The position numbers were made by a program, and so were the translations under genes. From Mobula hypostoma (lineage: Eukaryota), in contig NC_086097.1 of assembly GCF_963921235.1 (NCBI RefSeq), positions 14,322,001-14,386,000 of the forward strand: DNA of 64,000 bases, read 5' to 3'. The notes beneath the pieces were generated by a model that was given only the letters and a program-made list of their open reading frames with translations, was not told the origin of the DNA and made no database searches. Below, piece after piece: positions 33,644 to 37,684 of this stretch. The stretch's first letter is position 1. Each line of letters opens with the position of its first letter.

Positions 33644-35009
33644 CTTCTTGCTTATATATTTATTATTATTAGTTAGTTTTTTTTTCTTTTTACCTTTTGC
33701 TCATTGGTTGATTGTTTGCCTTCAGTTTTTCATTGATTCTATTGTGTTACTTTGAATGCCCTCAAAAAATAAATCTCAGAGTAGTACATTTGTATATGGT
33801 GAGATATATGTACTTTGAACTTTGAATTTTGAACTTTTGACAAAGACTTGGAACTTGGCCTCCAAATAAGTGCGTGTGCAAACATCTTGTTCAGTACCAA
33901 GGGCAATGTAGGTGGAGCCATTTTCCATTTCTTCTGTAGATGAGCTCAACTGTAGCAGTGAGATGTAATGCTGCAGAAAGTAGGTTGAAGGGAAGTGCTT
34001 CTGTTATGTCAGCTTGCGTCATGCAACATCTCTGGAGTCTAGGACCAGAGGGCACAGCCTCAGGATAGAAGGAGAGCCTTGAGAGATGGAGAGGAATTTT
34101 TTTAGACAGAGGGGAGTGAATCTCTGGAATTCATTGCCACTGGTGGCTGTGGAGATCAAGACATTGAGTATATTTAAAATAGAGATTGATAAGTTCTTGA
34201 TTAATCAGGGTGTCAATAGTTAGGCAAGAGAAGAGGGTTGAGAGGGATGATATCAGCCATGATTGAATGGTAGAGCAGTCCCATTGTGCAGATGGCCTAA
34301 TTCTGTTCCTGTTTTATGGTCTTATGGTCTTAATGGACTTGAGGTTTTGTGCTCCAATTGTAATTATGGATTATCAGCCATTGCTCAGTTAGTAGCAATA
34401 AACTGGAGAATAAAATGACCTAACAGACAACTGGTTTCCATCATAGAGTAGTTAGTTCATTGTAAATATTATCCTGTTCCAAGGAAGTTTTAATTCCAAT
34501 ACTTCAGACTAATGAGTTTTCAGGAAGTTCCAACACTCTTTTGCACTGTTGAAAATGCTCTGCTTTCAATTACTCATTTTATGTGGAAGCCATTTTCAGT
34601 AAATATTTCACCAGTGATTGTAAATCTAACCAACTCAGAATTGGAATCAGATTTAATATCATTGGCATATGTCATGAAATTTGTTGTTTTGCAACACCCG
34701 TACATTGCAATACATAATAATAAAAGTTATGAATTACAATATGTATATGTAAAAAAATAAAATTAAATTAAAGAAGTAGTGGGAAAAGAGGGAAAAACAT
34801 GCTGAAGAAGTGTTCATGGGTTCATCAACTATTCAGAGATCTGATGATGAAGAGGAAGAAGCTTTTCCTGAAATGTTGAGTGTGTGTCATCAGGTTCCTT
34901 GTTCCTCCTCCTTGAAAGTAGTAATGAGAAGAAAGCATATCTTGGGTGATGGGGATCCTTAATAATGGATGATGCTTATTTGAGGCTTCACTCCTTGAAG
35001 ATGTCCTGG

Positions 35010-35688: not shown

Positions 35689-36077
35689 ATATGCTGGAGA
35701 AGCTAGTGCCCATGATGGAGCTGGCTGAGTTTTCAACTTTCTGCAGCTTTTTCTGATCCTGTGCAGTGGCCCCTCCATCCCAGGTGGTGATGCAACCAGC
35801 TAGGAAGCTCACCATGGTACCTGTGTAGAAATTTGTGAGTGCCTTTGGTGACATTCCAATTCTCCCCAAACTCCTAAGGAGATTTAGGTGCTGTTATGCC
35901 TTCTTCGTAACTGTCTCAATATGTTGGGCCTAAGATAGGTTTTCAAAGATGTTAACACCCAGGAATATGAAACTGCTCACCCTTTCCACTTCTGGTCCCT
36001 CAATGAGGACACGTGTGTGTACCCTCGACTTCCCCTACCTGATGTCCACAATCAATTCCTTGCTCTTACTATTGATG

Positions 36078-36635
36078 TAGGTTTGGTCGCCGGCCGCCCG
36101 ACCATAGTTTTCAGTCAGGCGCTGGACGCTCGGAGAGATTCGGCAGGGGCCATGGTCGAGTGGTCGGTGACTTGGGCTGGCTGCCCCACCGGACTTAGTC
36201 TGGTGAGGAGGGTGTGAGGACACCCAGCAAGACTGAAAAAAAACAAGACCTGACAAAGGACGGATGAACTCCTTGTGAGCCAACGGCCATCTTCCGTGGA
36301 AGAGATTAAAGCCTCACCACGTATCTACGAATTGTATGCTATGCACCTAGTTAGAAGAGACATGATGAACTTGGGCGCTGCACCGTGTGCCTGGACCTGC
36401 CCAAGGCCTCCGCCTAAGGAAGGGTCGAGCTCGAAGAAGCAGCCGCGGCTGGAGGCCGACACGGCCTCGGGCTCAAGTTCGGCGGGGGCGGGGGCGGCGG
36501 CGGGCAGTGCCAAGGCGGCCAGCGAGAACAAACCAGAGGAGAGGCTGTACTTGGTGCTGTCGCAAGATCGAAGAAGAAGGAGGTGCATAGCCGCCAACCC
36601 CGGACTCGGGATGGCGCCCACTGACTGACTGACTG
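36078..36635 (+). mobile_element. RTE-derived non-autonomous element with captured host-gene fragment and (CTGA)n tail
   Basis: 10-bp TSD actattgatg (36068-36077) / actaatgatg (36636-36645); 3' end DMMNL..QDRRRRRCIAANPG resembles RTE C-terminus. Confidence 0.75.
36377..36560 (+). pseudogene. ZFTRAF1: Circularly permuted fragment of ZFTRAF1/CYHR1-like N-terminal coding sequence
   Basis: 36379-36411 encodes [11 protein letters not shown]; ~36433-36559 encodes KKQPRL...[12 protein letters not shown]; recalled vertebrate ZFTRAF1 reads KK...[25 protein letters not shown]. Confidence 0.8.
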
Positions 36636-37684
36636 ACTAATGATGAGTGCAAGGTTGTCGTTGCAACTGCACTCAACCAGCTGATCTATCTCGCTTCTGT
36701 ACACCTCCTCGACACCATTGAAATTCTGCCAACAATAGTTGTGTCATCTCCAAATTTAAAGATGCCGTGTGAGCTGTGTCTAGCCACACAATTGTTAGTG
36801 TAGAGAGAGTGGAGTAGTGGGTCACGCATAATTGAGGAGCACCAGTGTTGACTGTCAGTGAGCAGAAGATGATATCTGCACTGATTGTGGTCTCCTGTTG
36901 AGGAAAACAAGGATCTAGTTGCAGAAAGAGGTACAGAGGCCCAGGTTTTGGAGCTGCTGATTAGAACTGAGGATACGATTGCGTTGAACGCTGAGCTGCA
37001 GTCAATAAGCTGCACCCTGATGTAGATATTGTTATTGTCCAGATAGTCCAAGGCTGGGTAGAGAGCCAGTGTGGTTGCATCCACTGTAGACTCTTTGTGG
37101 TGATTGGCAAATTGCAGTGTATCCAGGTTTTTGTTTAGGTAGGAGTTGATTCCAGCCATGGCCAACCTCTCAAAGCATTATATCACAGTAGATGTGAGTG
37201 CCACTGGGTGATAGTCATTGAGACAGCTCACTCTGATCTTCTTGGGCACTGATATGATTGCCGCCCTTTTGAAGCAGGTGGGAAACTCTGACCACAACAG
37301 TGAGAGATTGAAAACATGCCCACCACTTGGTTGGCACAGGTTTCCAGAGCCTACGCTACCTACCAGAGCCTACTCAGAATAAGATGGAAGGTCCACTCAG
37401 ATTAAGATAGAAGAATGAAAAGTCGCACAGCCATTCTGACAGACTGTCACCTTCAGACCATCTTTGATCAGACACAGGAATAGGACACAAAACCGGGTCC
37501 TACTTCACCTTGTATAGTATCATATTACAACACCGTTTGGAGGCCTATCATTTGAACTCACGCACCAGAGACATTCAAATGGGCTTTCTTCCTTTCTACA
37601 TTGATGAAAATAATCTTATCTTTTAAAACTGTGCCCTAAAACATTTTAGTTTCATGAGGTAAATATTAATAGCAATAATAATGG

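Follow-up and report, generated by a model that had tools for sequence, protein, structure and literature searches.

The window, a stretch of 64 000 nucleotides from Mobula hypostoma, contains at 36080-36639 one copy of a non-autonomous retroposon of about 560 bases, assembled from both ends of an RTE-like LINE. Between the two ends lies a block (184 bases in this copy, 36377-36560) consisting of two adjoining pieces of exon 1 of ZFTRAF1 (CYHR1) in swapped order. Comparison with the native gene confirmed that the block corresponds to 178 contiguous bases of this exon in exact cyclic permutation, and the block is a fixed module of an interspersed family with at least 742 members. The window site is itself one ordinary repeat insertion; the interest lies in the family. 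The best overall explanation is a two-part LINE derivative with one permuted 178-base lap at its deletion joint, of which the window holds a retroposed copy; we hold this account with rather better than even confidence. The features of the window copy are collected in Table 1.

Table 1. Features of the retroposon copy and of its insertion site (window coordinates).
Feature	Position	Strand	Basis and remarks
Probable target-site duplication TGATG, left copy	36073..36077	+	Paralogous empty site; longer reading ATTGATG versus AATGATG
G+C-rich 5' leader	36080..36150	+	Window copy without the first few bases of the family (..TTCC)
LINE 5' part, from 5' untranslated region to fourth codon (ATG AAC YTG GGC)	36151..36376	+	Alignment to upstream stretches of long LINE copies
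Open frame of 95 residues, from LINE start region through block to last LINE codons	36341..36628	+	Open reading frame of the window copy
ZFTRAF1 piece A, later part of the source stretch	36377..36416	+	Native L041 1530->1491; ends 4 bases before the exon-1 splice donor
ZFTRAF1 piece B, earlier part of the source stretch	36417..36560	+	Native L041 1668->1531; carries a private 6-base insertion
Last 68 bases of the LINE reading frame, stop included (..SQDRRRRRCIAANPGLGMAPTD, stop)	36561..36628	+	15 of 15 LINE loci; LINE consensus
(ACTG)n tail closing both LINE and element	36620..36639	+	Sequence; LINE consensus
Probable target-site duplication TGATG, right copy	36641..36645	+	Paralogous empty site

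The block has a G+C content of 69.6%, compared with 43.8% for the window. It had been described in the initial annotation, made from the letters of the window, as a 184-bp unit read in two frames, and both frames were recovered: the frame at 36379-36411 encodes 11 residues followed by A and a stop, and the second, from 36413, encodes 50 residues. The 50-residue frame was compared with longer proteins and gave 523 candidates, none at E <= 0.01. The length of 184 bases holds for the window copy and not for the source stretch or the family, in which it is 178 bases, because the window copy carries a private insertion of 6 bases in a GGC-rich run of the block. The residues LYLVL and NKPEE, on which that annotation had also drawn, were likewise found to be private substitutions of the window copy; they are absent from the family consensus, which differs at these positions.

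The native gene was sought with a pattern that excluded the left flank of the repeat before the block start. Three places were found (none with the reversed-pattern control), of which one is the gene (L041, on another contig) and the other two are variant repeat copies. A genome search with the Pfam zf-TRAF model was discarded as a route to ZFTRAF1, since none of its 12 matches was ZFTRAF1 by eye. The native exon opens with an ATG at L041 1813 and encodes 109 residues, the last of which is a Q, followed by gtacag; the end of the exon was placed here because the alignment to a skate protein stops exactly at that Q. Its product matched 76 proteins at E <= 0.001, and those bearing a name are called zinc finger TRAF-type-containing protein 1 or cysteine and histidine-rich protein 1. 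Cartilaginous fishes supply the top five matches, with identities of 63-78%, and the assignment to ZFTRAF1/CYHR1 made in the initial annotation is borne out by them. Of the words sampled from the native exon region (L041:1400-1900), 79-96% occur in public runs under two different organism labels.

In BLAST alignments against L041, window positions 36417-36560 matched 1668->1531 (89.6% identity) and positions 36377-36416 matched 1530->1491 (97.5%). The last base of the block thus directly precedes its first base in the native gene, and no base has been gained or lost at the opening point. The 30-copy consensus of the block (178 bases), when rotated, is identical to native exon 1 at 174 of 178 positions in an ungapped alignment. 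The proposed circular permutation without gain or loss of a base therefore stands: the two pieces abut in L041 in the opposite order, and the rotated sequence is colinear with the host gene as a contiguous 178-base match in exon 1. Neither the swapped order nor a tandem duplication was found at the native locus, where a single colinear copy was seen over 1.5 kb in both directions, with one alignment per piece. The source stretch (L041 1668->1491) starts inside exon 1 (..gctgg/aggaaggg, with the slash at the boundary) and ends 4 bases short of the exon-1 donor (..gtcta/ccag/gt). In a comparison of the whole element with 3 kb around the native gene, the block was the sole match.

A search of the 3.48-Gb assembly with the block returned 907 first-look candidates. 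The 40 of these that were scored showed identities of 88-100% over at least 172 of the 184 bases. All 29 other loci that were fetched align with the window past the block on both sides (window positions of approximately 36080-36638). A 26-base string across the internal joint of the block was found at 742 places with at most two mismatches, and its reversed control at none in the 3.5-Gb genome. The block is accordingly not single-copy, a correction to the initial annotation. The 30 copies examined diverge from their consensus by a median of 5.2% (3.7% for the window copy), a median that may be too low as these are the copies most similar to the window copy. Two loci about 105 kb apart on one contig (L042 and L043) have the same private changes (GCGCT before the block and GTGAGCC within it), which suggests a segmental duplication that carried an element copy along.

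The LINE was found by searching with the right flank of the block while forbidding the block end, which gave 190 further places. All of the matches listed (100 of 190) have AAGAG or a one-letter variant before the right flank. In 15 of 15 LINE loci fetched, homology to the element opens at exactly 36561 and runs to 36629-36639, with identities of 86-96%; the last LINE bases in the element are the 77 at 36561-36637. The LINE consensus frame terminates with ..RKRAQDRRRWRCIAANPGFGTAPTD or ..EGKRERGRQRTTWYDNVRQWTGLSYAEARKRAQDRRRWRCIAANPGFGTAPTD and a stop, inside the (ACTG)n tail. A 366-residue frame of one LINE copy matched RVT_1 (E = 1.3e-28). The 5' end of the LINE, reached by walking up long copies, lies about 3.3 kb from the tail. 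Element positions 72-285 (window 36151-36364) align at 81-88% identity to five of five stretches upstream of long LINE copies, one of which aligns only over element positions 172-285. The homology continues to ..GATGAACCTGGGC (the fourth codon), beyond which the LINE continues with CCCTTGCGAG, whereas in the element the block begins, with GCTGCACC. The ZFTRAF1 block thus fills the joint of an internal LINE deletion exactly, replacing an interior of about 3 kb, and is in the sense orientation of the LINE. We call the LINE RTE-like on the basis of the RVT_1 match, the two-part derivative, the repeat tail and a C-terminal motif which we take to be of RTE type.

Two other kinds of element were encountered alongside this LINE. 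One is a second high-copy retroposon family of about 490 bases (L023:1023-1420 and L065-L073), with 1963 first-look candidates, 40 of which were scored and are 94-100% identical. Over about 175 bases it matches (81-83%) the 5' end of this LINE or of a relative of it, but its body is another one and it has a (GA)n end. The other lies upstream of a truncated LINE copy (L074:341-1249), where frames of 150 and 152 residues belong to a different reverse-transcriptase-bearing element.

Within the 5' leader, the start of the LINE part recurs in inverted form: positions 36080-36105 match 36151-36176 on the opposite strand at 23 of 26 bases, and the two form a hairpin. Seven of the eight full-length copies compared open with ..TTCC/TTCT GGTTTGG or AGTTTGG, and seven of the 29 other copies start at 36080-36081. 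An A-run at 36238-36246 was considered as a seam between two captured RNAs and was rejected, as the LINE 5' end has the same run. A tRNA scan of 35900-36800 found none, and an Rfam scan of the same interval gave only two weak matches below the gathering threshold, mir-2766 (E = 0.029) and sR32 (E = 0.1). We take both to be chance matches; that to mir-2766 is probably explained by the hairpin at the 5' end of the element (36080-36176).

The 95-residue frame is the longest in the element, which has no enzyme of its own. From the LINE start region (MNLG) it crosses piece A out of the native frame, reads piece B in that frame and continues into the last 25 codons of the LINE and their stop. The consensus of this mini-ORF is 85 residues long; 15 of the 30 copies keep it intact, against a fraction of 0.33-0.58 expected from substitutions alone. 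No signal of selection on the 85-residue consensus frame was detected among the 30 copies, and the ZFTRAF1 piece in the element is without demonstrated function.

The window copy arrived by ordinary retroposition of the whole element, through target-primed reverse transcription, into an older repeat. The halves of this repeat, at 35691-36070 and 36644-36764, are 75-76% identical to a paralogous copy (L013) in which the site is empty and the sequence runs uninterrupted from ..CTTACT to ..TGAATGCAGGG. In other full-length copies of the element, target duplications of 8-10 bases were readable in five of eight. Elsewhere in the window, about 49 bases at 34886-34935 match a tandem array with a 49-base unit (L024:35-867) at 84-85% identity.

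Since the block, its joint and its flanks are common to hundreds of copies, the capture happened once and elsewhere, in the founder of the family. A search for the left flank without the block start gave five places, all of which are internal deletions or family variants, and no block-less progenitor was found. The two LINE parts joined directly at the same right-hand point were not found among the matches listed (100 of 190), which contain only the LINE itself. The simplest history is that one event made the founder, placing the block exactly between the two LINE parts in LINE sense.

In the family, the circle joint reads ..GCCTCCGCCTA/AGGAAGGG.., which is blunt and has one substitution relative to the native exon. 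Microhomology, which the initial annotation had suggested looking for at this joint, is absent (0 bases) when the joint is read in the simplest way; an overlap of 3 bases (AGG) can be read only if 2 further bases were lost. None was found at either of the two joints between LINE and block. If the true donor were back-spliced to an AG inside the exon, the predicted joint would be ..GTCTACCAG/GAAGGG.., from which the family differs by a 2-base loss and the same substitution. No back-splice junction was found at the circle joint, since 4 bases separate the end of piece A from the donor and the start of piece B is internal to exon 1. First exons normally have no acceptor for back-splicing. Because the joint is not at splice sites, the block is not a canonical circRNA-derived pseudogene.

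It is probable, in our judgement, that the block represents one full lap of a closed 178-base circle that was captured once, when the founder was formed. An exact lap points to a closed circle, and both one turn of reverse transcription and a DNA filler made by a single cut would give the same product. The small-circle origin proposed at the outset can thus be kept in part: a closed circular intermediate is the simplest account of the exact permutation, and only the integration of a circle at the window site has to be abandoned. As to the nature of the circle, we tentatively prefer an RNA template entered by a template jump, a choice to which we give somewhat less than an even chance. The LINE reverse transcriptase would have copied 77 bases of its own RNA, then jumped onto a putative small circular RNA from ZFTRAF1 exon 1 and made one turn, halted on meeting the duplex that it had just made, and returned by a second jump to the 5' part of the LINE RNA. 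The resulting chimera would have kept the 3' tail recognized by the LINE enzyme and so have been multiplied. That the enzyme stopped after one lap is something we infer. This route is preferred because the block connects the ends of the LINE RNA in the manner of ordinary two-part derivatives, has the sense orientation and is intron-free, none of which is decisive. Against it stand the position of the joint away from splice sites and the lack of microhomology marking the jumps. The fully specified version, in which an RTE-clade enzyme copied exactly one lap of a non-canonically made ZFTRAF1 circular RNA and the chimera became the master of more than 700 copies, is a doubtful one.

The closest competitor to the RNA template is a circle of DNA, in which a 178-base microDNA from the first exon would have been opened by one break and end-joined as filler into a LINE copy that was losing its interior, the product then serving as master. 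MicroDNAs are small circles that typically originate from G+C-rich 5' exons, and the size and the G+C-rich 5' exon origin of the block (69.6% G+C) fit this description. A joint away from splice sites also favours a DNA circle, blunt joints without microhomology are compatible with classical end joining, and a 2026 preprint, in its available part, recognizes eccDNA-mediated germline insertions by a cyclic AB->BA order (10.64898/2026.09.03.749254). A DNA circle, however, needs a 3-kb deletion and the filler to coincide in the same LINE copy, leaving just those ends that two-part RTE derivatives usually keep, as far as the accessible portion of the source describes them (Kojima, 2018; PMC5786205); the sense orientation would be a 1-in-2 coincidence, and none of the three joints has lost a base. 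The insertions in the available part of the preprint, moreover, show terminal microhomology in 28% of cases and are intrachromosomal in 80 of 82, neither of which can be shown for the ZFTRAF1 block (10.64898/2026.09.03.749254). On this evidence a DNA circle seems unlikely, and we retain the RNA template.

An origin without any circle would require three or four jumps among linear RNAs, namely the LINE 3' end, two points of the ZFTRAF1 mRNA and the LINE 5' part. Template jumping is an established property of non-LTR reverse transcriptases. Non-colinear retrocopies are possible on open-ended structured RNAs with their ends close together (Dong et al., 2016; PMC4897178). A return to the ZFTRAF1 RNA would, however, have to break off at precisely the base that follows the first entry point, which has a chance of about 1 in 178 unless enforced, and the predicted fold of the native stretch keeps its ends apart and unpaired and is no stabler than shuffles (z = 0.09); we consider a series of linear jumps to be distinctly improbable. 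An assembly artefact, or a copy of a tandemly duplicated native exon, is very improbable indeed: hundreds of diverged copies have the same structure (median 5.2% from consensus in the 30 examined), these concordant copies are what supports the assembly here, and the native locus has one colinear copy within 1.5 kb either side. Hardly any weight at all is left for the mechanism put forward in the initial annotation, a small circle opened and integrated at 36377-36560 in the window itself. The exact permutation is all that speaks for it, and the identical block, joint and flanks at 742 places, the family tail, the target duplication and the empty-site paralogue all speak against it.

Several known systems share single aspects of the family. 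Two-part non-autonomous RTE elements, as described in the portion of the source available, retain nothing of the parent LINE but its 5' and 3' ends (Kojima, 2018; PMC5786205). The window family resembles the elements described there in combining a LINE 5' part with the last tens of bases, in having no reverse transcriptase of its own, in its high copy number and in its target duplications (PMC5786205). Unlike those elements, it has its deletion joint filled with 178 permuted bases of a host exon, and it has an extra 5' leader that includes an inverted copy of the LINE 5' part; both differences refer to what is described in that portion (PMC5786205). The family may be filed as a two-part RTE derivative (clade RTE-like) with a permuted host exon piece at the deletion joint.

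CircRNA-derived pseudogenes are stand-alone retrocopies whose hallmark is a back-splice junction between exons (Dong et al., 2016; PMC4897178). The family shares with them the non-colinear parental order and an entry into the germline for which reverse transcription is favoured, whereas its joint is internal to a single exon, falling 4 bases short of the donor, and its block is a module of a multiplied retroposon (PMC4897178). The eccDNA-mediated germline insertions of AB->BA order in the available text of the preprint are single events in mammals, mostly on the source chromosome, with 28% terminal microhomology (10.64898/2026.09.03.749254). The cyclic shift of a contiguous source interval is common to those insertions and the block; the block differs from them, as they are presented there, in standing at a LINE deletion joint, in having no microhomology (which is frequent and not obligatory among them) and in occurring only as a family module (10.64898/2026.09.03.749254). 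A circle acting at the level of the founder is, in our view, plausible.

The SVA_F1 elements (MAST2 exon 1) and chimpanzee pt_SVA_D6 (STK40 exon 1) carry, according to the accessible part of the source, colinear host exons at their 5' ends, spliced at the exon 3' end, in 84-94 copies (Damert, 2018; PMC6139936). As in these subfamilies, a G+C-rich host first exon has become fixed in an expanding non-autonomous retroposon; in contrast to them, as far as they are described in that part, the ZFTRAF1 piece is internal and permuted, has no splice-site boundary and is present in at least 742 copies (PMC6139936). Capture by splicing of the SVA_F1 type was not found for the ZFTRAF1 piece, which is permuted and ends 4 bases short of the donor.

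For annotation, the family calls for caution: this genome contains more than 700 ZFTRAF1-like fragments that are modules of a repeat and not separately arisen pseudogenes. With its exact one-lap copy of an exon piece set into the deletion joint of a LINE, the family documents cleanly the way in which such elements come together in nature, and it is among the few traces that a very small circular template has left in a germline. It can serve to test whether RTE enzymes copy circles, and to ask whether mobile elements take up sequence from small circles, of RNA or DNA, that arise from G+C-rich first exons. If the RNA-template reading is true, the family would be evidence, from the germline of a non-mammal, that circular RNA serves LINE enzymes as a template and that they halt after a single turn.
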